The notes under the pieces are model-generated. The model did no database searches and was not told where the DNA came from. It saw nothing but the letters and a program-made list of their open reading frames with translations. A stretch of 64,000 nucleotides of DNA from an uncultured Methanomassiliicoccales archaeon (GTDB lineage Archaea; Thermoplasmatota; Thermoplasmata; Methanomassiliicoccales; Methanomethylophilaceae). The stretch lies in contig CAZHJV010000001.1 in NCBI GenBank assembly GCA_964533525.1, positions 13,928 through 77,927 on the forward strand, written 5' to 3'. Of the stretch, positions 2,881 to 32,321 are shown piece by piece; within the stretch, counting starts at the first letter, position 1, and the number at the start of each line of letters is the position of its first letter. Position numbers and translations under genes: made by a program.

Positions 2881-3576
2881 TTGGATGTAGCATCCAATAT
2901 GAGAACCGCTCAGGCCGAAGACTACGTGAATGCAATTCTAGCCATGGCAGACGGCGGCAACCACGACGCCCAGTGCAGTATCGGCATAATGTACCTGAAC
3001 GGAATTTCCGTGGACAAGGACGAGAAGAAAGGGATCGAATGGCTGAAGACGGCGGCGGAACACGGATCCGCGGAAGCTGCCAGCAAACTGGGGATCGCCC
3101 ACTACTGCGGCATCGGCACCCCTGTCGACTACGCCGAAGCCCTGAAATGGTTCCGCATTGCATCCGATATCGGACACGGCCCGTCCGATGTATATCTCGT
3201 GTGGATGTATGCCCGCGGCCAGGGGACCTCCAGAAACGCCGCGGAGGCACTGAACCACTATTTCCGTGCGATATCCTGCGCGGATGCCGGCGATGCGGCC
3301 ACCCAGGGACATCTGGGCCGCGTATATATGATGGACGACAACGTATTCGGAAAAGACTCCGTCAAAGCCGCGCATTACCTCAGGCTCGCCGCTTTGCAGG
3401 ACGATGCGGACTCCCAGTACGGTCTCGGTCTCATGTATGCGGACGGATTCGGCGTGGAACGCTCCATCCCGAAGGCCCGGATGTGGCTCGGAAGATCTCT
3501 CGCCAACGGCAAAACAGAAGCGTCCGAAGCTCTGGAAAAACTCTCCGAACGCAAAGTGCCTGCAGATGTTTTTTAA
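2881..3576 (+). CDS. Sel1-like (SLR/TPR-family) repeat protein
   Basis: Repeated ~36-aa units of the form A..WL/WF..AA..G...A...LG.MY..G.GV..D (GIMYLNGISVDKDEKKGIEWLKTAAEHGSAEA; LGLMYADGFGVERSIPKARMWL). The track start is TTG at 2881; the first ATG is at 2899. Confidence 0.8.
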   Translation: MDVASNMRTAQAEDYVNAILAMADGGNHDAQCSIGIMYLNGISVDKDEKKGIEWLKTAAEHGSAEAASKLGIAHYCGIGTPVDYAEALKWFRIASDIGHGPSDVYLVWMYARGQGTSRNAAEALNHYFRAISCADAGDAATQGHLGRVYMMDDNVFGKDSVKAAHYLRLAALQDDADSQYGLGLMYADGFGVERSIPKARMWLGRSLANGKTEASEALEKLSERKVPADVF

Positions 3577-6584: not shown

Positions 6585-7390
6585 TAAGACTGCCGTCCGA
6601 GGTCTATCCCCGAAAGGACCTTCTCCCTGTAGGCTTCAGCCTCCTCCTCCGTACCCGCGAGCAGGAGGAACTTCGTCTTCTCCAGGATCTCTTCGTCCAC
6701 ATAGGCGCCCGCGACACGAGCCATGAACAGCCCCGGCATGAAGTCCCAGATCTTGTTCACGAAACGGATGTGTATGTCCGTCCTTCCCGATGCGATGTAT
6801 GCGAAATCGACGCAGGCGGCACCGAACATCCTGATACGCGCCACCTCGTCCTTCATGGCGCCGATGATCTCATAGTGCAGATCCCTCCACACCTGTTTCT
6901 TTCTGGAGAAATCCCCTGTCGACACGATGGCCTTCTTCAGGTCGGTGTTCCCGCGGGGATGCACAGGGACTCCGTTGAGTTTCACTCCTCCGGCCTCGGT
7001 CGCCGTGAACATCTCGCCGCGGACGGGCAGATATATGACGGACATGACGGGCTTCCGATCCACCATCAGGACGATCTGCGTCCCGAACATCGGGATGCCG
7101 TGTTCGAAGTTCAGAGTGCCGTCGATGGGATCGATAGCCCAAGTCCTGGCACATGTGAGGGAATTCTCCTGCCCCTCTTCCGCGATGAAGAGATCTCCCG
7201 GGAACTGCGCCGATATCGCATCGATTATGCTCTTCTGCGCGGCCTCGTCCGAGACGGTGACGAGGTCGTAGGAACCGACGGCGTTGGTCTTCTCTTCGGA
7301 CGGTCCCGCCTCGGAACCGACGTACATGTCGCCCGCGGCGCGGACCGCAGAGACCGCCGCCTCCAATTCACGGGAATACGGATCTTCCAT
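6581..7390 (-). CDS. inositol monophosphatase / fructose-1,6-bisphosphatase family protein (paralog 1)
   Basis: Metal-binding motifs IAEEG and WAIDPIDGTLNF, plus the C-terminal WDFMPG motif. 269 aa. Confidence 0.9.
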   Translation of the reverse strand: MEDPYSRELEAAVSAVRAAGDMYVGSEAGPSEEKTNAVGSYDLVTVSDEAAQKSIIDAISAQFPGDLFIAEEGQENSLTCARTWAIDPIDGTLNFEHGIPMFGTQIVLMVDRKPVMSVIYLPVRGEMFTATEAGGVKLNGVPVHPRGNTDLKKAIVSTGDFSRKKQVWRDLHYEIIGAMKDEVARIRMFGAACVDFAYIASGRTDIHIRFVNKIWDFMPGLFMARVAGAYVDEEILEKTKFLLLAGTEEEAEAYREKVLSGIDLGRQSY

Positions 7391-7423
7391 GACCCAGACA
7401 AGAAAAAACGGACATATACGTTT

Positions 7424-8092
7424 TCAGGCGAAGGGGATGATCCTGCGGAACACGGCGGTCGCACGGACCTCCGGAAACTCCTCCCCCGAGCCGTCCCCGG
7501 CGAAATACCAATGTCCGTACCCGATCCTCCTCAGAACGGATTCCAGGACCTCCGCGGACTGCGGAACGTCCGATCCGGACGCATACCGTTTCCATGATCT
7601 GGGACAGTCGCAGGTCAGCACAATATCCGCCTTCCCGCCGGCCTTCCGTACGTTGCCGCAGGCAGTATCCGCATCCTCCTGCGACGGATCCTGTTCCGGC
7701 CACCAATCCCAGTATCTGCCGGCGTCCGTACGGCCGGGAACGGTCTTCCCGCCCATCGTCAGCACCGTCTTCCCGCCGAGTCTGAAGACCTGCCCGCGGG
7801 TGAGATGGATCAGCCCTCTGGATACCGTGTGGACGGTGCCCCCGTTCCACGGGAACGGCGGATAATCGCCTATGAGGTCGTAATCGTCGCCGGGGCCGTC
7901 GAGGAAAAGAACGGAACAGGGAAGGGACCTGTATTCCTCCGCGATACGGCGCAGGTCGGCGCGGGGCGCGAACACCCCGCTGTCCCCGAGTATGACCAGA
8001 AAATCGTTCTTGGACATGGATGCGACGGCCGGATCGGACTCCAAACCCGAAAGACCCAGAGGTCCGGAGAACCCGGCCGCCGCCGCGAACAT
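7424..8092 (-). CDS. metallophosphoesterase-like protein, degenerate (lacks N-terminal DxH; GNHD-equivalent reads GPGDD)
   Basis: ILGDSG (GD motif), FLDGPGDDYD in place of GNH[DE], IVLTCDCP in place of the His motif, GYGHWYF (GH.H-like). An in-frame stop lies about 60 nt upstream of the ATG, so no longer N-terminus is possible. Confidence 0.55.
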   Translation of the reverse strand: MFAAAAGFSGPLGLSGLESDPAVASMSKNDFLVILGDSGVFAPRADLRRIAEEYRSLPCSVLFLDGPGDDYDLIGDYPPFPWNGGTVHTVSRGLIHLTRGQVFRLGGKTVLTMGGKTVPGRTDAGRYWDWWPEQDPSQEDADTACGNVRKAGGKADIVLTCDCPRSWKRYASGSDVPQSAEVLESVLRRIGYGHWYFAGDGSGEEFPEVRATAVFRRIIPFA

Positions 8093-24287: not shown

Positions 24288-26471
24288 TCAGTGGATGAAC
24301 AGCAGCTCCCTGTACTTGGGGAGGGGCCACATCTGGTCGTCGACCATCATCTCGAGGGAATCCACGTGGGACCTGATCTTCTCGAGCATGGGCGCCATCT
24401 TATCATGGTAGATGATGGCCGCGGCGCGTCCTTCCTCCTCCTGTGACAGTTTGGCATCCAGGGCGTCGAGCTCGTCGACGAGGCTCTCCGCGGCGGATAT
24501 GTCCTCGGAGATGCATCTGATGAGGTCCATCTGGGACGCGGCCATCTTCCTGAAGTCCTTGTCCCCGTAGATGTCCTTGAGGTTCCTGACGTTGTCGAGG
24601 AGGATGTTCTGATACCTGATCGACACGGGGATGACGTGGTTGGTGGTGAGGTCGCTGAGGACCTTGCCCTCGATCGCCATCTTCTTGCAGTAGATCTCCC
24701 AGAACACCTCCTTCCTGGAAGCCAGTTCGACCTCAGTCATGACCTTCGTCTCCGCGAACACCTTCACGGTCTGCTCGGAGGTGAACGTGTCGTAGACCAG
24801 GGGGACGGAGCTCTCGCAGTCGAGTCCGCGCCTGAGGGCCTCGGCCTTCCACTCATCGGAATACCCGTTCCCGTCGAAGCAGACGTTCTGGCAGGCCCTG
24901 TACGTCTCACGGGTCTCGTCGAGGACCGCCTGCATCGCGGGAACACCCGACGCGATTCTCGCGTCGACGGCCTTCTTGAACTGTGCCAGCTGATACGCGA
25001 GGATGGTGTTGAGCACGGTGACCGCACCGGAGCAGTTCGCGCTGGAACCGACGGCCCTGAACTCGAACCTGTTGCCGGTGAAGGCGAACGGGGAGGTCCT
25101 GTTCCTGTCGGTGTTGTCCACCAGGAGCTCGGGGATCTGCGGGATGCCGAGACTGTATCCCTTCTTCCCGGCGATCTTGACCATGTCCTTGCTGTCCAGC
25201 AGCTGGGCGAAGGCCGCGCTGACCTGTTTGCCGAGGAACGACGAGATGATCGCCGGAGGGGCCTCGTTCGCACCGAGCCTGTGGGCGTTGGTCGCGTTGA
25301 GGACGGTGGCTTTGAGGAGGGCGTTGTTGTCGTAGACGGCCTTGAGAGTGTTCGCCATGAAACACAGGAATCTGAGGTTCTCCTTGTCCGTCTTGCCGGG
25401 GGACATCAGGGCGATGCCGCTCTCGGATCCGAGGGACCAGTTGCAGTGTTTCCCGGATCCGTTGATGCCCGCGAAGGGCTTCTCGTGGAGGAGGACCTCG
25501 AAACCGTGCTTCTCGGCGACGGTCTTCATGAGGGACATCAGCAGGAGGTTGTGGTCGATGGCCAGGTTCGACGACTCGTAGACGGGGGCGATCTCGAACT
25601 GGTTGGGAGCGACCTCGTTGTGCCTCGTCTTCAGCGGGATGCCGAGTTTGTACGCCTCGAACTCCAGATCCTTCATGAACTCGAGGACGCGGGGCGGGAT
25701 CGTGGCGAAGTAGTGGTCATCGAGCTGCTGGTTCCTGGCACTGTCGTGCCCGATGAGCGTGCGGTCGGTGAGAACCAGGTCGGGACGCTGCATGTACAGG
25801 TCCCTGTCCACCAGGAAGTACTCCTGTTCCCAGCCGAGGTACGAGTGGATGACCTCGTTCCCCTCGCCGAAATACTCCAGGATCGACTTGGCGGCCTTGG
25901 TGACGGCAGAATCGGATTTCAGGAGGGGCGTCTTGTAGTCGAGCGCCTCCCCGGTGTACGACACGAACACGGTGGGGATGCACAGGGTGTCCCCTATGAC
26001 GAATGCGGGGGACGAGGGATCCCATGCGGTGTATCCCCTGGCCTCGAAGGTGTTCCTGAGGCCTCCGCTGGGGAAGGACGACGCATCCGGTTCCTGCTGG
26101 AAGAGGAGTTTTCCTTCGAATTTCTCCAGGGACTCCCCATGTCCGCGGGGGTGCGCGAACGAATCGTGTTTCTCGGCGGTGCCTCCCGTGAGGGGCTGGA
26201 ACCAGTGGGTGTAGTGGGTCGCACCGAGGTCCATAGCCCATCTTTTCATGCCTTCGGCCACGTGGTTCGCCACGTTGCCGTCGAGGGTCGCTCCCCTCTC
26301 GACGGTCTCATAGATGGATCTCCTGGTCTCCTCGGAGAGGTATCTCCTCATGGCGGCCCTGTTGAAGACGTTGCGTCCGTAGTACGCGGAAGTCTCCTTT
26401 TCCGGGGCGACCGCGGCGACGGGTTCCTTTGCATTGGCGCTCTCGACTGCAGTGAACCTGAAGGTCTGCAT
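24288..26471 (-). CDS. glnN: glutamine synthetase, type III
   Basis: 727 aa. It has the GSIII-specific N-terminal domain (YYGRNVFNRAAMRRYL, THYTHWFQPLTG) and catalytic core (GWEQEYFLVD, NGSGKHCNWSL, NRTSPFAFTGNRFEFRAVGSS). Confidence 0.95.
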   Translation of the reverse strand: MQTFRFTAVESANAKEPVAAVAPEKETSAYYGRNVFNRAAMRRYLSEETRRSIYETVERGATLDGNVANHVAEGMKRWAMDLGATHYTHWFQPLTGGTAEKHDSFAHPRGHGESLEKFEGKLLFQQEPDASSFPSGGLRNTFEARGYTAWDPSSPAFVIGDTLCIPTVFVSYTGEALDYKTPLLKSDSAVTKAAKSILEYFGEGNEVIHSYLGWEQEYFLVDRDLYMQRPDLVLTDRTLIGHDSARNQQLDDHYFATIPPRVLEFMKDLEFEAYKLGIPLKTRHNEVAPNQFEIAPVYESSNLAIDHNLLLMSLMKTVAEKHGFEVLLHEKPFAGINGSGKHCNWSLGSESGIALMSPGKTDKENLRFLCFMANTLKAVYDNNALLKATVLNATNAHRLGANEAPPAIISSFLGKQVSAAFAQLLDSKDMVKIAGKKGYSLGIPQIPELLVDNTDRNRTSPFAFTGNRFEFRAVGSSANCSGAVTVLNTILAYQLAQFKKAVDARIASGVPAMQAVLDETRETYRACQNVCFDGNGYSDEWKAEALRRGLDCESSVPLVYDTFTSEQTVKVFAETKVMTEVELASRKEVFWEIYCKKMAIEGKVLSDLTTNHVIPVSIRYQNILLDNVRNLKDIYGDKDFRKMAASQMDLIRCISEDISAAESLVDELDALDAKLSQEEEGRAAAIIYHDKMAPMLEKIRSHVDSLEMMVDDQMWPLPKYRELLFIH

Positions 26472-26506: not shown

Positions 26507-26920
26507 CCCACAGAAGAAAACTCCATTTTGACGTCGAAATTGCAAAAAAGATATTGTCTTTGTTACCATTTAAACCTTTTAATTAGACAAATGTCTAACA
26601 ATTTAATTAATTGAAGAAGTGTTAACAACCATATTATCGGGTTAACGGCACTAAACACGAGTTTATATCCGCGATCGGACAGACAAGTGCCTACCGAAGC
26701 GTCCGCAGATGGACGGGAAAAACCCCTTCCGCGGGACAGGCCAGATGTCCGCGGCCCGTCTTCCGGGATATGCATCTGGCACATGCGTTCCGGGCAATAA
26801 CATAGATTAATTCAAATACCGAATGGAAATATGTTAAAGCAATAAGAAAAAGGGGGCCATACCATAGGATTCAAGCTGTTCAAATCCGGCGACCAACTGT
26901 ACGATGAGGCCATCGACCTC

Positions 26921-27790
26921 GTGAACAGGAAGGAGTACGGAAATGCCAAAGACAAGTTCGAGGACGCCCTGTCCAAGAACACCGGCAAGGCCGAGATGGC
27001 CAAAACGTACATCGCCCTGATCAAACTCCTCAACAACCGCGGAGATGCGGAAGCCTACAGGAATCTCATCAACTGCCTGGAGAGGTGCGGGGAGAGTTCG
27101 TTCAAATTCGGTCTCACCGACGTCGACACGGAGGAACTGAAGAACGAGTGCAACCTCTCGATAGAGGAGATCTTGGCGACTCAGATGCCCGGCTCCGACT
27201 ATATGGCCAAAGGTCAGGCCATGATCGACGTGGCGGCCAAATACGCCGGCGTGATAGGAGAGAATCCTCTCAAGATCAACGAGATCAGCACCGGCAACAC
27301 CCAGGCCACGGGTACCAGGGAATCCCTCATCCTCCAGGCCATGGCCTACGAGTGCATGGGAACCGGCATCGTGCTGAAGGACCCCAAACAGGGTTCAGAG
27401 TACATGCAGATGGCCTACAACTTCCGCAGGCAGGTGGGCGATTCCGGCGACAGGGATCTCGAACTGATGAAGTGCTATGCGAAGTCCGGCAAATGCTGGC
27501 TCTGCGGAAGGCCCGCCAACGGGGAGGGCGTCCACTTCATGGCCGTCAGAAGCACGATATCCGAGATGTTCAGGAACAGGGAGAGCTCCGACGTCATCAG
27601 AACCGCCGACGACGACTTCAGATCGATCTACATCTGCATGCCCTGCTACACCGCCGTATCCAACAGGTCCGACGAGATCTCCAAGGGCTACTACGACCAA
27701 GCCATCAGCGAGATGAGGGCCATGGAGGCGAGGCTCGAGATGGAGATCGCCTCGATCCGCACGGAGCTGACGTTCGTCAGAACGAGGTGA
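26921..27790 (+). CDS. hypothetical TPR-like / Zn-ribbon / coiled-coil protein (cluster gene 1); frame open and coding-like back to 26864
   Basis: The track start is GTG 26921. The C-terminal half carries CWLCGRP..(37 aa)..CMPC, followed by a heptad-rich tail. The in-frame upstream 57 nt read IGFKLFKSGDQLYDEAIDL with coding-type third positions. Confidence 0.7.
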   Translation: MNRKEYGNAKDKFEDALSKNTGKAEMAKTYIALIKLLNNRGDAEAYRNLINCLERCGESSFKFGLTDVDTEELKNECNLSIEEILATQMPGSDYMAKGQAMIDVAAKYAGVIGENPLKINEISTGNTQATGTRESLILQAMAYECMGTGIVLKDPKQGSEYMQMAYNFRRQVGDSGDRDLELMKCYAKSGKCWLCGRPANGEGVHFMAVRSTISEMFRNRESSDVIRTADDDFRSIYICMPCYTAVSNRSDEISKGYYDQAISEMRAMEARLEMEIASIRTELTFVRTR

Positions 27791-27804
27791 TCCGCACGGA
27801 CAGC

Positions 27805-29337
27805 ATGGTTTCCCTCAGGTGCAAATACTGCGGCGCGCCCCTCGAAGCAGACGACGTCAAGGGCGACAGCCCCTACGTCACATGTCCCAGCTGCGGTACG
27901 ACCCAGCAGAGGATCGACGCACAGGCGTACCTCGACCAGCTCATGGGACAGGTCCGCTCCTGGATCAACAAGGCCGTCCCCGGCGGACTGAGCGTCGCCC
28001 AGTCGGAGAACGTGGACAGCGTCGCAAGGCACAGCATATTCATGAACAGCGTCAAACCGAGGGTCGACATAGAGTTCGGCGAATACAAATTCGCCCTCAC
28101 CTCCCTGCTCGCCAACCCGATGCTCGTCATGCCCTTCACCGTGGACACGAAGATCAAGACGAAGCACACTCCCGCCCAGGCGTTCGAGTTCAGCGAGAAG
28201 ATGTCGGGAGTGGCCCCTCTGGCGGTGGATTCCGACAGCAAGGAACTCATCTCCACGGCGAAGAACGTCTCCGATGCCTACGCCCTGCTGATCAACAACT
28301 CCAACCTGCTCAAGGAGAACAAGGACGGAAGGTACATCCTCATGTCCAACAACTTCAGCGCGGCCGCAGAGGACTTCGGGGCCCTGAAGGACTACGAACC
28401 CGCGGCCACCCGCTTCGCCGGCCTCAGTACGGCCTGCCAGGGATGCGAAAAACTCCTCAACGGGGATGTCGCCACCGCCCTGCAGCTCTTCGGTCAGGGA
28501 AAAAGCAAACTGAACGAGGCGAAGACCCAGCTTGCCGGAAACATGAAGGTCGCCATCATGGGACAGCCCATCGCGACGGAGATCAAACAGGTCGAGACGC
28601 TCGAGGAGACGGCGAAATCCGTCTACTCCATGGGCGGCGACCCCGTCAAGGCGCTGGACAACATAAGGCGCATCTTCGAGTACAAGTTCCCTTCCGGAGG
28701 GAACTGGGGATTCATGCTCAACAACAGGGACAGGCTGACCGAGATATTCGCCAACATGACCGACGCCGTGAAGGCGAAGAGCGGAGGGTCCGTCAACATC
28801 GCACCCGGCGACGGGGACATACTCATCCCGTTCTGGCACATCGACCTCAGGTACAGTTTCCAGACGGGTTCCCTCTGGAAGAAGAAGGCCGTCGAGGTCA
28901 GCGAGGACCTCCTGATCCCCGCCGACTTCGTGATAGACGAGGCCTGCCTGAACAACCCCCGTTCCGCGGTCACAGACGTATTCAGCATCAGGACCAAGGA
29001 TGGTGCCTTCGCGGGCATCCTAGGGAACGAGAAATCGATCAGCAACGGTTCCGGGATCTCCGACATCGTATCGAGCGCGGCCCCCAACTCCATCGGAAGC
29101 AGGGCCGCCGTGGTGCCTCTCAGCACCGAAAAGGAAGCCGAGCGCCTCGCCGAACAGTACGTGAGCGCCGTGGCCTCCGCCGAATCCAAACTCAAACTCA
29201 GCAACCCGGACGTGGACAAACTCATTTACATCCCGTTCAGAAGATCCGGCAACCGCCTGACGGCGCCGTCCAGCTTCGGACAGCTCGTCCCCGGCAGGAT
29301 CGGACGCACGGACCTGGACGAACTGATCATCATCTGA
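27805..29337 (+). CDS. hypothetical 510-aa protein with N-terminal Zn-ribbon (cluster gene 2)
   Basis: MVSLRCKYCGAPLEADDVKGDSPYVTCPSCG, then helical and beta regions. This is the real C-terminal part of track ORF 27085..29337. ATG 27805 lies 14 nt after the gene 1 stop. Confidence 0.75.
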   Translation: MVSLRCKYCGAPLEADDVKGDSPYVTCPSCGTTQQRIDAQAYLDQLMGQVRSWINKAVPGGLSVAQSENVDSVARHSIFMNSVKPRVDIEFGEYKFALTSLLANPMLVMPFTVDTKIKTKHTPAQAFEFSEKMSGVAPLAVDSDSKELISTAKNVSDAYALLINNSNLLKENKDGRYILMSNNFSAAAEDFGALKDYEPAATRFAGLSTACQGCEKLLNGDVATALQLFGQGKSKLNEAKTQLAGNMKVAIMGQPIATEIKQVETLEETAKSVYSMGGDPVKALDNIRRIFEYKFPSGGNWGFMLNNRDRLTEIFANMTDAVKAKSGGSVNIAPGDGDILIPFWHIDLRYSFQTGSLWKKKAVEVSEDLLIPADFVIDEACLNNPRSAVTDVFSIRTKDGAFAGILGNEKSISNGSGISDIVSSAAPNSIGSRAAVVPLSTEKEAERLAEQYVSAVASAESKLKLSNPDVDKLIYIPFRRSGNRLTAPSSFGQLVPGRIGRTDLDELIII

Positions 29338-29363
29338 TAATTCAACGAAAGGAAGGGATTGAA

Positions 29364-29744
29364 ATGGTAGACAACCAAGGAAACGCATACAGGACGAGAG
29401 GCGTCATAATGGCGGCCGTTGCGCTCATCGGCATAGCCATATGCGCAGTCCTCTACGGAGTGGCCGGAGTGGACCTCCTCACGGTATTCGGAGCATTCCT
29501 CGTCATCATCGGCGCGGACCTGTTCCTCGTCGGGGCGACCTACAGCTCCGCACCCGACAAATTCGGACCCTCCGAGCAGATGTACAGAGTGGCAGTCGGT
29601 CTCCTGGTGGCCGTCATCGGCATAGCCGTGATCCTCATCGGACTCGACGTGAACATGTGGGTGGCCGTCGCCGTGGTGATCGTCGGAATCGCACTGATCG
29701 GTCTCGCCACCGGACTCATAAACAGCAAGAAATCCAAATTCTGA
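29364..29744 (+). CDS. small integral membrane protein, about 4 TM (cluster gene 3)
   Basis: MVDNQGNAYRTRGVIMAAVALIGIAICAVLYGV..VAVAVVIVGIALIGLATGLINSKKSKF. It is the 3' end of spurious track ORF 27819..29744. Confidence 0.7.
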   Translation: MVDNQGNAYRTRGVIMAAVALIGIAICAVLYGVAGVDLLTVFGAFLVIIGADLFLVGATYSSAPDKFGPSEQMYRVAVGLLVAVIGIAVILIGLDVNMWVAVAVVIVGIALIGLATGLINSKKSKF

Positions 29745-29756
29745 GGGTGAAGGCAA

Positions 29757-30302
29757 ATGGCTAACACACTGGAAAACAACGTAGAAGGCCAGATGGCCAA
29801 GAACAGGTCCCTCGTCGAGAGGATCGCGATGTACATCCCGTTCTACAGGGGCTACAAGCAGAAGAACCTCCGCAGGGACGAAGACAGGGCGATCAGAGAC
29901 GTCGTGGCCAAGGAACTGATGAACGTGAAGACCGACCTGTCCAACGCATCCCGCGCCGCCGTCGGCGACCTCGATGCCATGAGGGACGCCGAGAGGATCA
30001 AGGCGAAGGTCGACAGGTACTACGTGGACGTCAAGAAGGCCGCGGCCGGATACAGCGCATTCCACGACTCCGTGAAGATCATGGAGACGGAACTCGACAA
30101 CATCATCTCCTGGGACGCCCAGCTGATCGACGGCGTACAGAGCCTCAAGACATCATCCGCGGAACTCGTACAGTACGCGGACACCGGCGATAACATCAGG
30201 CCGGCCCTCCGCGCCGTGGAGAAGGAGATAGATGCGCTGATCGAGGCCTACAACCAGAGAGAGAACATCATGAAAGGCTTCGTCGACGGAGAGAAGGAGT
30301 GA
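29757..30302 (+). CDS. hypothetical coiled-coil protein, 181 aa (cluster gene 4)
   Basis: All-helical, heptad-rich sequence with no TM segment. ATG lies 12 nt after the gene 3 stop, and the stop overlaps or abuts the gene 5 start. Confidence 0.7.
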   Translation: MANTLENNVEGQMAKNRSLVERIAMYIPFYRGYKQKNLRRDEDRAIRDVVAKELMNVKTDLSNASRAAVGDLDAMRDAERIKAKVDRYYVDVKKAAAGYSAFHDSVKIMETELDNIISWDAQLIDGVQSLKTSSAELVQYADTGDNIRPALRAVEKEIDALIEAYNQRENIMKGFVDGEKE

Positions 30303-30307
30303 TTCCA

Positions 30308-31411
30308 ATGGCAGAAAAGAAACAGAACGTCGTATTCTGGAAAGACCAGGGGCCGGATGACATCATCTACGTGTCCCCCGATGACGACCTGAGGACCATC
30401 ACCTCCGTCACCGTACCCGAACACGCCGTCGCCCTGTTCGTCAGGGACGGCCAGCTGCAGGGGGTCCTGGAGCCCGGAAGGCATGTGGTCACCAGCGCCA
30501 ACATCCCCTGGCTCACCACCCTCTACAACAAGGCCCTCGGATTCAGGGAGACCCCCTTCAAATGCTCCGTGATCTTCATCTCGCTGAAGATCTTCAACGG
30601 AAAGTGGGGCCTCAGATCCATGATCAAGGCGGCCAAGGAATACGAGGTGCCCATAACCCTCATGGCGAACGGGGACTTCCAGTTCCGCATCCAGGATGTC
30701 AACGTGTTCTACACCCAGGTCCTGGGAGGAATGAAGAGCTACACGACCGGCGACGTGAACCAGTTCATGAAGAGCTTCATCACGGAACAGCTGATCCAGC
30801 AGCTCAACACCCAGTACTATATGGATGTCATGGGCAACCTGGAGAAGGCCTCCACCTCCACCAAGATCCTCATCGACCCCTACTTCCAGCAGAGAGGAAT
30901 CGAACTGCTGGCACTGAAGATCAACGAGGTCTCCACCACCGAGGAGGAGAAGACCAAGGTGTTCGAGTACCTCCAGTTCAGCAGCGCCAACGGAGAGGCC
31001 TTCAAGAGATACGAGGTCATGGACCGTATGGCGGATGCCATCGGAGATTCCCAGGGAGGTGCGGCCATGGGTGCAGGAATGCTCCTGTTCCCGCAGATGT
31101 ACCAGCAGCTCAGCCAGCAGCCAGTCCAGGGAGTGCAGCAGCAGGCGGCGCAGCCCCAGGCCCAGAAGGTCATGTGCCCGTTCTGCGGCGGTCTCAACGA
31201 CTATCCGTACAAGTTCTGCGGGAACTGCGGAAAGCCCTCCCCCATGATGCAGAACCAGCAGCAGGCCGCGGCACCCGCCGCACAGCCCGCTGCGGCGGCT
31301 CCCGCCGCCGGCGGAGCGGTCTTCAAGATCTGCCCCTACTGCGGACAGGACCTCAGCGGTCTGAAGAAGACCCCCAAGTTCTGCCCCTACTGCTCCGAGC
31401 AGCTTCAGTAA
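30308..31411 (+). CDS. SPFH/Band-7 superfamily protein with C-terminal double Zn-ribbons (COG4260 / YdjI-like) (cluster gene 5)
   Basis: VVFWKDQGPDDIIYVSP..VPEHAVALFVRDGQLQGVLEPGRH..FKCSVIFISLKIFNGKWG fits the YdjI-type SPFH pattern. A Q/A-rich linker follows, then CPFCGGLNDYPYKFCGNCG and CPYCGQDLSGLKKTPKFCPYC. AAGGAG lies 8 nt before ATG 30308; the track start GTG 30299 overlaps the upstream stop. Confidence 0.8.
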   Translation: MAEKKQNVVFWKDQGPDDIIYVSPDDDLRTITSVTVPEHAVALFVRDGQLQGVLEPGRHVVTSANIPWLTTLYNKALGFRETPFKCSVIFISLKIFNGKWGLRSMIKAAKEYEVPITLMANGDFQFRIQDVNVFYTQVLGGMKSYTTGDVNQFMKSFITEQLIQQLNTQYYMDVMGNLEKASTSTKILIDPYFQQRGIELLALKINEVSTTEEEKTKVFEYLQFSSANGEAFKRYEVMDRMADAIGDSQGGAAMGAGMLLFPQMYQQLSQQPVQGVQQQAAQPQAQKVMCPFCGGLNDYPYKFCGNCGKPSPMMQNQQQAAAPAAQPAAAAPAAGGAVFKICPYCGQDLSGLKKTPKFCPYCSEQLQ

Positions 31412-31421
31412 ACCCTTCAAA

Positions 31422-31452
31422 CCCGGGCTCCGGCCCGGGACCTTATCTTTTT
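31422..31452 (+). terminator. hairpin plus T-tract closing the five-gene cluster
   Basis: CCCGGGC-TCCG-GCCCGGG (7 bp), followed by ACCTTATCTTTTTCC. Confidence 0.5.
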
Positions 31453-31514
31453 CCGATATGTTTTTACGCCCGTCCCGAGTGGTACGGCCCAAGGTGTTCT
31501 CCGTGGACAGGATC

Positions 31515-32321
31515 ATGTTATCGGTCATAGACCTCGCCGTCAAGGCGGGGGAGATGGTTCTATGCGACTCCGGATTCGAAGTGAGGAACAAAGGGACCAA
31601 GGAGAACTACGTGACCTCCACCGACGTCAAGGTGCAGGAATACCTGCGGAGGGAACTCACCGCACTCATCCCGGGATCGTACTTCATGGGGGAAGAAGGG
31701 GACCTCCCTGAAGAGGATGACAGACTCCGCGGCAGCGACCGGTGGATATGGATCGTAGACCCCATCGACGGGACCGCCAACTATGCCAGGGGAATGGAAA
31801 ACTCCGTCGTCTCCATCGCCCTCGTGCGGTACGGGAAAGTGGTCCTCGGGACCGTACGCCACCCGTACCTCGACATGACCTTCCATGCGCAGGAAGGCAT
31901 GGGTGCATACATGAACGGGGAGAGGATCCATGTCTCCGACAGGGATCTGGCACATTCGATGTTCGCGACCGCGTGGTCCGCATACAACAAGAGCCGGGCC
32001 CATCAGTGCTTCCGCATATCGGAGAGACTGTACGGCGAATGCGAAGACATCAGGAGGACCGGCACGGCCGCCTTCGAACTCTGCATGCTCGCCAAAGGCG
32101 CCATAGACATCTACTTCGAGATCAACCTCGCACCGTGGGACTACGCCGCCGCCTCGCTCATCGTGAAGGAGGCAGGGGGGTTCACCGCATCCCTGAAGGG
32201 AGACCTCGACCTCTACGCCCAGGGAACTGCCATGGCCGGCAACACGGAAGAGAATCTGGAACATGTGAAGGCCGTGGTCTCGGAGGAACTCTCGAAATCC
32301 GAAAACAGCAGGTCCGACTGA
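31515..32321 (+). CDS. inositol monophosphatase family protein (paralog 2)
   Basis: FMGEEG, WIVDPIDGTANY and WDYAAASLIV motifs. The track ORF starts at 31458, but the family-typical N-terminus is MLSVIDLAVKAGE (ATG 31515). Confidence 0.9.
   Translation: MLSVIDLAVKAGEMVLCDSGFEVRNKGTKENYVTSTDVKVQEYLRRELTALIPGSYFMGEEGDLPEEDDRLRGSDRWIWIVDPIDGTANYARGMENSVVSIALVRYGKVVLGTVRHPYLDMTFHAQEGMGAYMNGERIHVSDRDLAHSMFATAWSAYNKSRAHQCFRISERLYGECEDIRRTGTAAFELCMLAKGAIDIYFEINLAPWDYAAASLIVKEAGGFTASLKGDLDLYAQGTAMAGNTEENLEHVKAVVSEELSKSENSRSD

Follow-up and report, generated by a model that had tools for sequence, protein, structure and literature searches.

Layout of the five-gene cluster

The window, by which we mean the whole 64,000-nt stretch of DNA that was analysed, contains a block of five co-directional genes at 26864-31411, all on the + strand. 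The host is a gut methanogen belonging to the Methanomassiliicoccales. The features of the block are:

26852-26866, + strand: GGGGG Shine-Dalgarno-like run (26852-26856), 7 nt before the ATA at 26864
26864-27790, + strand: gene 1, 308 aa (ATA start) or 289 aa (start at GTG 26921)
27805-29337, + strand: gene 2, 510 aa
29364-29744, + strand: gene 3, 126 aa
29757-30302, + strand: gene 4, 181 aa
30308-31411, + strand: gene 5, 367 aa
31422-31452, + strand: terminator-like hairpin with a 7-bp all-GC stem, plus T5 tract

The spacers of 14, 26, 12 and 5 nt reported in an initial, sequence-only reading of this DNA were recovered in the sequence, and an alternative GTG start for gene 5 at 30299 would give a 4-nt overlap with gene 4. 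The same reading had the cluster closed by a hairpin plus T-tract, and both elements are indeed present (CCCGGGC-TCCG-GCCCGGG at 31422-31439 and TTTTT at 31448-31452); together they probably mark the end of the transcription unit, possibly as a leaky terminator. The ATG at 31458 opens an inositol-monophosphatase-like gene, which is not a conserved neighbour in the syntenic contigs that were compared. Upstream lies a divergent type III glutamine synthetase gene starting at 26471. The surrounding genes are of the housekeeping type (thermosome, glutamine synthetase, purine genes, tRNAs), and we identified neither a promoter nor a regulator of the stress-responsive kind for the cluster.

Homologues of gene 1 open with M[AG]F(K)LFKSGD, to which the window aligns as I-G-F-K-L-F-K-S-G-D. 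The window shares the ATA at this position with four independent assemblies; BRNA1 has ACG at the site, again following GGGGG. Judged from this alignment, ATA 26864 is probably a near-cognate start codon. The upstream spacer, originally given as 449 bp, has that length if measured from 26471 to GTG 26921, but it shrinks to 392 bp if gene 1 starts at the ATA, because the homologues start 19 codons earlier.

The five encoded proteins

Gene 5 had been assigned to the SPFH/COG4260 (YdjI) type, and its profile matches bear this out: PF13421 (Band_7_1) is matched with E 8.6e-26 and 91 bits versus a cut-off of 24, accompanied by matches to PF01145 (E 9e-9) and DZR (26.1 bits). The SPFH (Band_7_1) domain occupies residues 29-219 and is followed by a Gly/Ala/Met-rich segment and a Q/A/P-rich linker. 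The Q/A-rich linker and two terminal Zn ribbons described earlier are thus both found, with the ribbons at 290-307 and 342-362 (CPFC, CGNC, CPYC, CPYC). We detected no transmembrane segment or membrane anchor in this protein, and found no solved structure related to it by sequence. As claimed, three of the five proteins carry Zn ribbons, CxxC pairs also being seen in the products of gene 1 (CWLC, CMPC) and gene 2 (CKYC, CPSC).

The gene 4 protein was expected to be an all-helical coiled coil. It is all-helical, but is modelled by AlphaFold as a four-helix bundle preceded by an N-terminal helix (pLDDT 83, pTM 0.78) and not as a long coiled coil. Its description as a non-PspA partner agrees with profile and sequence comparisons, which gave no PspA or ESCRT-III likeness. 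The family has two conserved Gly/Tyr loops (IPxYRGYKxK and GYSxF) and invariant residues P28, Y33, R40, D43, R47, D120 and R168; it is large (1159 clusters at 50% identity) and unnamed, with no Pfam entry. All 53 sampled members match NCBIfam NF047596 (LIMLP_15305_fam, Leptospira) at near full length, with a best E of 2.4e-23, but all of them fall below its cut-off. Gene 4 itself aligns to model positions 24-173 of 175 with E 2.9e-8, scoring 33.8 bits versus the equivalog cut-off of 210, and the NF047596 family has no assigned function. The gene 4 domain also occurs fused to a Zn ribbon, including in Lokiarchaeota, to DUF4178 in probably bacterial loci, to an anti-sigma-like zf-HC2 segment and, in one truncated metagenomic protein, to a Ser/Thr kinase.

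Gene 3 encodes four hydrophobic segments, corresponding to four transmembrane (TM) helices, and its product is the sole membrane-integral protein of the five and a candidate membrane anchor. It is homologous to a 4-TM protein of about 115 aa from Bathyarchaeia (hhalign probability 98.3%, E 1.2e-14), whose gene directly follows the SPFH gene and which occurs in 53 of the 81 loci.

The gene 2 product consists of an N-terminal Zn ribbon, a helical solenoid of about 290 residues and a C-terminal alpha/beta domain (AlphaFold model, pLDDT 85, pTM 0.74). It is soluble, with no TM segment, and gave no match to the PDB by sequence or by fold. It has 212 homologues; the gene was found in Methanomassiliicoccales alone and is lineage-specific. 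Comparison with the Zn-ribbon partner from Bathyarchaeia gave an hhalign probability of 94%, covering the Zn ribbon and first helix only. Homology of gene 2 to YdjG could not be demonstrated past the N-terminal Zn ribbon.

The gene 1 product begins with a TPR-like helical region and ends in a coiled coil; its CxxC...CxxC Zn ribbon has invariant C217, C220, C264 and C267 (numbered in a query starting at 26846). Weak TPR_2 matches were obtained for 12 of 23 family members, and no other Pfam family was matched in these 23. Every one of the 142 homologues is of Methanomassiliicoccales type, and the gene was absent from 160 loci outside this order; from its sequence distribution, gene 1 is a lineage-specific accessory. 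The view that genes 1, 2 and 4 belong to no characterised family was upheld by profile, sequence and fold comparisons. A short IPF motif said to recur in genes 2 and 4 does occur three times, but at chance frequency (25 tripeptides are seen at least three times in the cluster proteins versus 24.7 expected from shuffles), and at two of the sites its F is not conserved, most family members having IPGY at the gene 4 site and IPC at the second gene 2 site.

Conservation of the gene 4-gene 5 pair and its gene context

Synteny in relatives, which the sequence-only reading had made a test of its proposal, was found: the five-gene order is kept in BRNA1, L089 and L090, all Methanomassiliicoccales, and one contig of the latter two retains it despite different flanking genes. 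In a more divergent contig (L091), genes 1, 2, 4 and 5 are in order with no gene 3 between genes 2 and 4. Co-occurrence of the SPFH gene with its neighbours extends further, a gene 4 homologue directly preceding a gene 5 homologue at approximately 155 loci from other archaea and metagenomes. This adjacency was seen at 81 of 81 genome loci, spanning Bathyarchaeia, Nitrososphaeria, Thermofilaceae, Methanocella and Lokiarchaeota, and at 72 of the 75 metagenomic loci with enough room, and the two genes overlap or are at most 5 nt apart in 108 of 156 pairs (69%). Members of the gene 4 family behave as obligate neighbours of Band_7_1 SPFH genes, being encoded directly upstream of them at nearly every locus examined, archaeal or bacterial. 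A Zn-ribbon protein gene lies upstream in 56 of the 81 genome loci, and in other archaeal phyla the Zn-ribbon protein, gene 4, SPFH and small 4-TM proteins recur in varying order. What is conserved is not the five-gene cluster but a smaller unit, in which the gene 4-gene 5 pair is joined by a Zn-ribbon protein and a small 4-TM protein.

At some loci, DUF4178 or Zn-ribbon-Toastrack genes lie between gene 4 and the SPFH gene, and at two probably bacterial loci (L092, L093) a gene 4-DUF4178 fusion is followed by PspA_IM30 and then Band_7_1. In such probably bacterial loci the fused gene 4 domain shares an operon with PspA or with Toastrack genes. A Novosphingobium plasmid carries Band_7_1 with DUF4178, DUF350 and a polyamine aminopropyltransferase. 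Ravi et al. [quoted passage not shown] Our loci resemble those contexts in that Band_7_1 is linked with DUF4178, Toastrack, Zn ribbons and PspA, and in that the gene 4 domain is fused to DUF4178 and found beside those genes. They differ in that DUF4178, Toastrack, polyamine and PspA genes are all missing from the window cluster, and in that the gene 4 domain is not named in the consulted passages of that paper. Searches with phmmer and two bacterial PspA queries, which have limited sensitivity, returned no PspA gene in the window and no PspA homologue in the archaeal loci. Since gene 4 and PspA co-occur in some probably bacterial loci, gene 4 would be an additional partner and not a PspA replacement.

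[quoted passage not shown] The analogy is partly supported. Gene 5 shares the published YdjI/SamI architecture (SPFH domain, low-complexity region, C-terminal zinc finger, no anchor), and in both systems the SPFH protein is co-encoded with an alpha-helical protein, a membrane protein (here the sole one, from gene 3) and an N-terminal Zn-ribbon protein, the ydjG primer encoding MIISYKCPNC. The occurrence of gene 4/gene 5 loci with PspA, Toastrack and DUF4178 supports the analogy at the level of gene context. The individual partners differ: the gene 3 protein (126 aa, 4-TM) has no TPM domain, unlike YdjH, and the gene 2 protein combines a single ribbon with a long helical insert and lacks a TM segment, so that neither fits YdjH or YdjG as described. 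The helical partner is a four-helix bundle unrelated to PspA/ESCRT-III, gene 1 adds a further protein, with TPR and Zn ribbon, and the gene order is not the same. In SPFH-NfeD and HflK/C-FtsH, too, the gene of an SPFH scaffold is closely linked to that of a dedicated partner, but there the SPFH protein has its own membrane anchor and the partner is NfeD or a protease, whereas here an anchorless SPFH protein is paired with a soluble helical bundle.

A candidate sub-membrane SPFH scaffold complex

On balance, we favour an operon whose genes together encode a YdjI/SamI-type SPFH scaffold complex, one that lies beneath the membrane and forms part of a PSP-style membrane-stress network. By analogy with the B. 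subtilis experiments, the gene 3 protein, aided by the Zn-ribbon protein of gene 2, would hold the SPFH oligomer, which has no anchor of its own, at the membrane. The gene 4 protein would be produced in step with gene 5 and bound to its product as a fixed partner, a physical contact that we infer from gene order, probably through the conserved Tyr/Gly/Lys-Arg tip of its two loops. It would govern how the scaffold assembles or link the scaffold to effectors. The Zn ribbons, which are on nearly all components and in Lokiarchaeota on gene 4 itself, may mediate assembly, and gene 1 (TPR, Zn ribbon, coiled coil) would be an additional adaptor specific to Methanomassiliicoccales.

The same complex might serve signalling instead of repair, with the gene 3 and gene 2 proteins forming a membrane sensor that the SPFH protein holds in check, and the gene 4 protein as a signal-transmitting or modulating subunit. 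A 2026 preprint proposes that SamI restrains SamG-SamH in B. subtilis, such that SamI loss leads to constitutive SamGH signalling, a phenotype for which PspA is dispensable. The kinase and anti-sigma-like zf-HC2 fusions of the gene 4 domain point the same way, as do the genes for Toastrack proteins, which have been proposed to form sub-membrane signalling platforms, between gene 4 and the SPFH gene at some loci. However, the kinase fusion is that single truncated protein, and the Methanomassiliicoccales and Bathyarchaeia modules encode neither a transcription factor nor a kinase nor any other output domain; we consider signalling a rather doubtful reading, though one with some chance of being right. 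It is unlikely that the SPFH protein serves as scaffold or regulator for an unrelated membrane enzyme or protease whose gene lies elsewhere, with its neighbours as assembly chaperones only. Such behaviour is general in the SPFH family (HflK/C with FtsH, stomatin with NfeD), and chaperone-like band-7 roles are proposed by Ravi et al. (2024, PMC11237479), but no linked protease, NfeD or transporter gene was seen in about 160 loci, where the conserved partners are gene 4, the 4-TM protein and Zn-ribbon proteins.

We regard as very unlikely an ESCRT-related accessory system for sorting or division. Makarova et al. (2024, PMC10936438) report Meth_adaptin ESCRT neighbourhoods in methanogens and an SPFH-ESCRT-III link. 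Like our cluster, these archaeal neighbourhoods join one protein of SPFH, coiled-coil and Zn-ribbon make-up to multidomain proteins with Zn ribbons, which in the Meth_adaptin case are of the adaptin-appendage kind. The build of gene 2 (Zn ribbon, helical solenoid, alpha/beta C-terminal domain) would suit such a role, its weak Foldseek matches include Bro1 domains, and at one Thermofilaceae locus an arrestin-N-like Zn-ribbon protein is encoded downstream of the gene 4-gene 5 dyad. Yet the Bro1 matches are non-significant (E 0.5-1, TM 0.24-0.33), the adaptin-appendage fold is missing from the best 50 fold matches of gene 2, and the CdvA-like match of gene 1 has E 0.28 in 1 of 23 family members. 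There is no Vps4, ESCRT-III/Snf7 or CdvA gene in the cluster or its called neighbours, and the gene 4 and 4-TM components are not described in the Meth_adaptin report. Lastly, defence islands often contain multi-gene clusters that encode uncharacterised Zn-ribbon proteins, and a study of CBASS regulation mentions PspA and YdjI, which could suggest an anti-virus or abortive-infection module with an SPFH protein and Zn-ribbon sensors. This is the most improbable of the readings: none of the five proteins matches PADLOC-DB, domains of the nuclease, NTPase or toxin kind are absent, the surrounding genes serve housekeeping functions, and the block is vertically conserved over an order and the dyad over phyla. 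Moreover, plasmid matches to the SPFH query were limited to Proteobacteria and a few other bacteria, all lacking gene 4.

Under the favoured reading of a YdjI/SamI-type scaffold, archaeal ether-lipid membranes may have requirements other than those in the B. subtilis analogy, and the physiological role of the complex would be the sensing or stabilisation of stressed membranes.

Layout of the cluster and the start of g1

The five co-directional genes, g1 to g5, and the features that flank them are as follows:

24288–26471, minus strand: type III glutamine synthetase gene, divergent, upstream of g1
26921 (first canonical start, GTG) to 27790, plus strand: g1, 289 aa from the GTG
27805–29337, plus strand: g2, 510 aa
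29364–29744, plus strand: g3, 126 aa
29757–30302, plus strand: g4, 181 aa
30308–31411, plus strand: g5, 367 aa
31422–31439: all-GC hairpin of 7 bp, downstream of g5
31448–31452: T5 tract, 3' of the hairpin, closing the cluster
31458–32321: inositol-monophosphatase-like gene, the next gene after the cluster

The gaps between g1 and g5 measure 14, 26, 12 and 5 nt, in agreement with the tight packing described in a sequence-only reading of this DNA, and the hairpin and T-tract that it placed at the end of the cluster were both found. Every one of the CxxC pairs it reported in g1, g2 and g5 is present, and its small membrane protein is g3, with four hydrophobic segments of membrane-spanning length; among the five proteins, such segments are confined to g3. 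Genes called in the neighbourhood are those for a thermosome, SMR transporters, glutamine synthetase III, the inositol phosphatase, an HPP protein and purine genes. The ATG of the inositol-monophosphatase-like gene lies only 5 nt past the T5 tract, close enough that read-through may transcribe this gene. The gene is not kept as a neighbour, being absent from this place in two other Methanomassiliicoccales contigs (L089, L090), and in Thermoplasmatales archaeon BRNA1 a 225-aa gene lies between. The order g1–g5 itself is preserved in BRNA1 and two more contigs, one of which has wholly different flanks, as expected if the five genes are syntenic. In the more divergent contig L091, g1, g2, g4 and g5 are kept, with no g3 between g2 and g4. 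Nine metagenomic contigs carry an exact copy of g4, with the gene order unchanged in the six places listed, and the names of close relatives include Thermoplasmatales archaeon BRNA1, Candidatus Methanoplasma and Methanomethylophilaceae, which assigns the window to the Methanomassiliicoccales.

Homologues of g1 are ~305 aa long and begin with M-[A/G]-F-(K)-L-F-K-S-G-D. In the window, the in-frame residues I-G-F-K-L-F-K-S-G-D upstream of GTG 26921 align with this N-terminus, and 26864, the start coordinate of the earlier reading, is for this reason the better start. The 449-bp upstream spacer of that reading was measured to the GTG, and becomes 392 bp when the gene starts at 26864. The codon at the position of the homologues' ATG is ATA, 7 nt after a GGGGG run; ATA is found here in four independent assemblies too, and the BRNA1 gene has ACG, likewise preceded by GGGGG. 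Judging from these alignments, g1 probably initiates at a near-cognate codon. Across the start sites of the window (26852–26866) and of the retrieved locus L088 (~3090–3130), the ATA and ACG codons lie 7–10 nt after GGGGG. No structured RNA was found in the ~390-bp leader of g1, and Rfam yielded four tRNAs only in the whole window.

The proteins of the cluster

None of g1, g2, g3 and g4 matches a Pfam family, so g1, g2 and g4 are indeed without a nameable Pfam family. g1 gave weak TPR matches only, and a CdvA-like nature of its coiled coil was rejected (E 0.28, in one of 23 family members). g5, in contrast to these, belongs to a family that is already known. It scores 91.3 bits against PF13421 (Band_7_1; cut-off 24, E 8.6e-26, profile positions 12–204 of 211), which bears out its assignment to the SPFH/Band-7 proteins of the COG4260 (YdjI) type, and it also matches PF01145, with the double Zn ribbon scoring slightly below the DZR threshold. 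The highest 19-residue hydropathy is 1.03, and hence g5 has no TM-like segment; the tail is rich in Q, A and P and carries four CxxC motifs. g5 thus shares with YdjI/SamI the lack of an anchor and a low-complexity stretch that leads into a C-terminal zinc finger. No solved structural relative of g5 was detectable by sequence. Around residues 245–262 of g5, and in its Bathyarchaeia homologues, there is a segment that falls short of a TM helix in both length and hydrophobicity and could serve in membrane dipping or oligomerisation.

For g2 we obtained Zn-ribbon matches only, corresponding to one N-terminal ribbon, and no TM segment. Its full-length model, the C-terminal alpha/beta domain included, gave no significant fold match, and so lends no support to a kinship of g2 with adaptin appendages, Bro1 or YdjG; a profile search of the PDB returned a single marginal match, to GID8 (E 0.01). 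g3 has four TM helices in 126 aa and no match to TPM. A short IPF[WYR] motif had been seen to recur in g2 and g4, but its recurrence is at chance level: shuffled proteins yield as many tripeptides occurring three times, and the F is conserved in neither the g4 nor the g2 family, so we regard the motif as meaningless. The identical DNA words at these sites (family D4) reflect preferred codons.

The AlphaFold model of g4 (pLDDT 83, pTM 0.78, built on 29 sequences) consists of an N-terminal helix (2–24), a loop with a conserved IPxYRGYKxK motif, and four helices of 26–34 residues each (40–67, 72–97, 110–143, 148–178), with two Gly/Tyr loops paired by two short strands. g4 is thus helical, as had been proposed, but the model is a compact four-helix bundle rather than an extended coiled coil. 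Foldseek against the PDB and viral models gave generic helical bundles (best E 0.012–0.03, TM ~0.5 or lower), with no ESCRT-III or PspA structure near the top of either list; in BFVD, a phage PspA/IM30 protein ranks 39th (E 0.71, TM 0.26). A profile search of PDB sequences found nothing, and for g4 and one Bathyarchaeia homologue neither PF04012 nor PF03357 appeared at E up to 1. Compared by hhalign with two PspA proteins whose operons also contain g4, a 53-member alignment of the g4 family reached a probability of 0.2%. The long alpha1–alpha2 hairpin of the ESCRT-III fold is not seen in the model. A kinship of g4 with PspA, Vipp1 or ESCRT-III, which the sequence-only reading had put up for checking, is ruled out by these Pfam, PDB-profile, Foldseek and hhalign results, and its description of g4 as helical and not PspA stands.

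g4 belongs to a large family. In an exhaustive HMMER search with sequences clustered at 50% identity, 1159 clusters had E up to 1e-3, and 503 remained at 1e-10. Members are nearly all 165–185 aa long and are matched over their full length. They share the motifs IPGYRGYKEKELRRExDxxxR and YGYSGFFDxVK...ELD...FD, and P28, Y33, R40, D43, R47, D120 and R168 are invariant in the 53-member sample. All 53 members match NF047596, the NCBIfam family named after Leptospira LIMLP_15305, significantly and far below its cut-off; g4 itself scores 33.8 bits against an equivalog cut-off of 210, in an alignment of near full length. This combination places g4 in the LIMLP_15305 superfamily as a different equivalog. 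For LIMLP_15305, the literature held a table entry only in the way of functional data. The two g4 loops, GYRGYK (residues 25–40) and GYSGFF (95–110), are each followed by a helical hairpin and are joined by a small beta bridge. Aligned with each other by hhalign, the two halves give a probability of 16% and an E of 0.0015, which is no more than suggestive of an internal duplication. In a 1032-aa metagenomic protein (P0435), 11 stretches match g4 profile positions 42–93; a repetitive protein, coiled-coil or of low complexity, is more probable here than a true relative.

Gene context of g4 homologues

Our first scan searched one genome per GTDB species with a motif and confirmed at least 527 g4 matches, for which 80 loci were listed, mostly from Bathyarchaeia and also from Nitrososphaeria, Thermofilaceae and Methanocella. 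With one Lokiarchaeota locus added, an SPFH g5 homologue directly follows the g4 homologue in 81 of the 81 loci examined, so the co-occurrence that was to be checked in archaeal genomes is borne out for this pair. These SPFH proteins are ~325 aa long, and the majority carry two Zn ribbons at the C-terminus. The second scan, with a different motif and in metagenomes, added 80 further loci, with the SPFH gene present in 72 of the 75 that had room downstream. Both scans were built on narrower g4 alignments than the broad family alignment. The two genes are at most 5 nt apart or overlap in 108 of 156 pairs, as is usual for translationally coupled genes and for subunits produced in a fixed ratio.

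The surroundings of this g4–SPFH dyad vary with lineage. In Thermoproteota, a ~248-aa protein with an N-terminal Zn ribbon is encoded ~70 nt upstream (56/81 loci examined) and a ~115-aa four-TM protein ~13 nt downstream (53/81). The latter is homologous to g3 (hhalign probability 98.3%, E 1.2e-14). The former aligns to g2 in the ribbon and the next helix (probability 94%); homology to the C-terminal domain of g2 was rejected, hhalign and hmmsearch not being significant. Other lineages rearrange or fuse the parts; there are examples of an upstream 4-TM gene in Nitrososphaeria, of Zn-ribbon proteins with TM segments in Thermofilaceae, and of g4 fused to a Zn ribbon in Lokiarchaeota. g1 and g2 are restricted to Methanomassiliicoccales among their homologues and the 81 loci examined. 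In one Thermofilaceae locus (L011), the dyad and a small TM gene are followed by a gene at 7082–7615 whose 177-aa product combines an arrestin-N/Spo0M-like domain (E 2.4e-9) with a Zn ribbon at the C-terminus. Three MAG contigs are labelled Sulfotelmatobacter (L055), "bacterium" (L028) and Nanoarchaeia (L073); these labels are probably wrong, because L055 and L073 show the Bathyarchaeia-type order around the dyad and the SPFH protein of L028 is of the same archaeal type.

Longer proteins with a g4 domain are fusions to DUF4178, an N-terminal Zn ribbon, a TM helix or a Ser/Thr kinase fragment. Three of the fusion proteins (P0476, 384 aa, from a JGI metagenome; P0488; P0417) have the g4 domain at the C-terminus, preceded by a Ser/Thr protein-kinase fragment, an anti-sigma-like zf-HC2 segment or a single TM helix. 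On two contigs, a g4–DUF4178 fusion gene is followed by PspA_IM30 and then by Band_7_1 with Zn ribbons, and one of the two has a gene for a TM and Zn-ribbon protein further upstream. In other metagenomic loci, g4 and the SPFH gene are separated by genes for DUF4178, Zn-ribbon–Toastrack or TM–Toastrack proteins. Ravi et al. (2024, PMC11237479) count Toastrack, DUF4178, band-7 and Zn ribbons among the partners in the phage-shock-protein network, and in the parts of that paper available to us the g4 domain was not found named. The DUF350/polyamine operon type is described there as PspA-associated, with band-7 able to replace the CesT/Tir–PspA pair (Ravi et al., 2024). On plasmid p1 of Novosphingobium sp. 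ES2-1 (L174, 88980–97597), a Band_7_1 gene without g4 heads an annotated operon with two DUF4178 genes, a small hypothetical gene, DUF350 and a polyamine aminopropyltransferase gene, and a helix-turn-helix gene lies upstream; no plasmid-borne g4 homologues were found.

Relation to pspA-ydjGHI and a possible role

The YdjI/SamI protein of B. subtilis is soluble, and its localisation to the membrane depends on the membrane proteins YdjG and YdjH; YdjI is required for PspA foci, and YdjH interacts with both YdjI and PspA. The sequence-only reading saw in our cluster a possible rearranged module of this kind. The likeness holds in gene context, and by analogy the cluster would work like pspA-ydjGHI. 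It is not a member of that system, however, because it lacks PspA, a TPM-domain protein and a demonstrable YdjG homologue: the Bacillus operon includes a PspA gene, and none was found in the window with phmmer (two PspA queries) or Pfam PspA_IM30; YdjG-type proteins combine two Zn ribbons, a YpeB-like NTF2 fold and a TM segment, whereas g2 has a single ribbon and no TM segment; and YdjH is a membrane protein with a TPM domain, in contrast to the four-TM g3.

We observe the gene order, homology and architecture of the cluster directly, and from the Bacillus analogy we would expect physical contacts, membrane localisation and a role in stress. An oligomer of g5 would be anchored by g3 together with g2, g4 would be a fixed partner of g5 that governs its assembly or its coupling to effectors, and g1 may be a lineage-specific adaptor. 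In the predicted recruitment of g5 to the membrane, the part visible in the cluster is the co-encoded 4-TM protein g3. The main rival keeps the same complex and has it act as a signalling brake; according to a 2026 preprint, SamI restrains SamGH signalling. The other explanations have little support. An ESCRT accessory would find its model in the Meth_adaptin neighbourhood, but that contains Vps4/ESCRT-III and adaptin-appendage genes, none of which are among the neighbours here, and no appendage domain is among the top 50 fold matches of the full-length g2 model. A defence module was rejected, as the PADLOC-DB models of known anti-phage systems gave no match to the five proteins beyond g1 at E 0.066. 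There is equally little to favour the SPFH protein as a scaffold for client enzymes.

SPFH proteins of the YdjI/SamI type are actively studied as a link from membrane-stress sensing to PspA/ESCRT-III, and to our knowledge the Bacillus operon is the only such system dissected so far. In the searchable literature there appears to be no description of the g4 family, of its near-obligate pairing with Band_7_1 or of the four-part archaeal module. The cluster leads to a partner family of more than 1000 sequence clusters without a Pfam entry, tied by fusion and operon to DUF4178, Toastrack and PspA. Its coupling to YdjI-type SPFH proteins is closer than that of PspA, in several archaeal phyla and in metagenomic loci that are probably bacterial. 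g4 offers a concrete, testable idea of how SPFH scaffolds without an anchor may be assembled or read out, within a minimal, reconstitutable module of Zn-ribbon protein, helical bundle, SPFH protein and 4-TM protein. More than half of 915 archaeal genomes in a Psp survey were without any Psp domain, and the cluster offers an entry point to archaeal membrane-stress biology, of relevance to researchers of SPFH proteins, PspA/ESCRT-III and archaeal membranes. The boldest reading, which we think rather unlikely as a whole, is that the g4 family is an ancient, undescribed core subunit of YdjI-type SPFH machines in archaea and bacteria, the one that acts on the membrane or transmits the signal. If so, the dyad of archaea without PspA would suffice by itself to maintain the membrane, independently of ESCRT-III/PspA, and bacterial g4–DUF4178 would be the missing link joining the SPFH protein to PspA.
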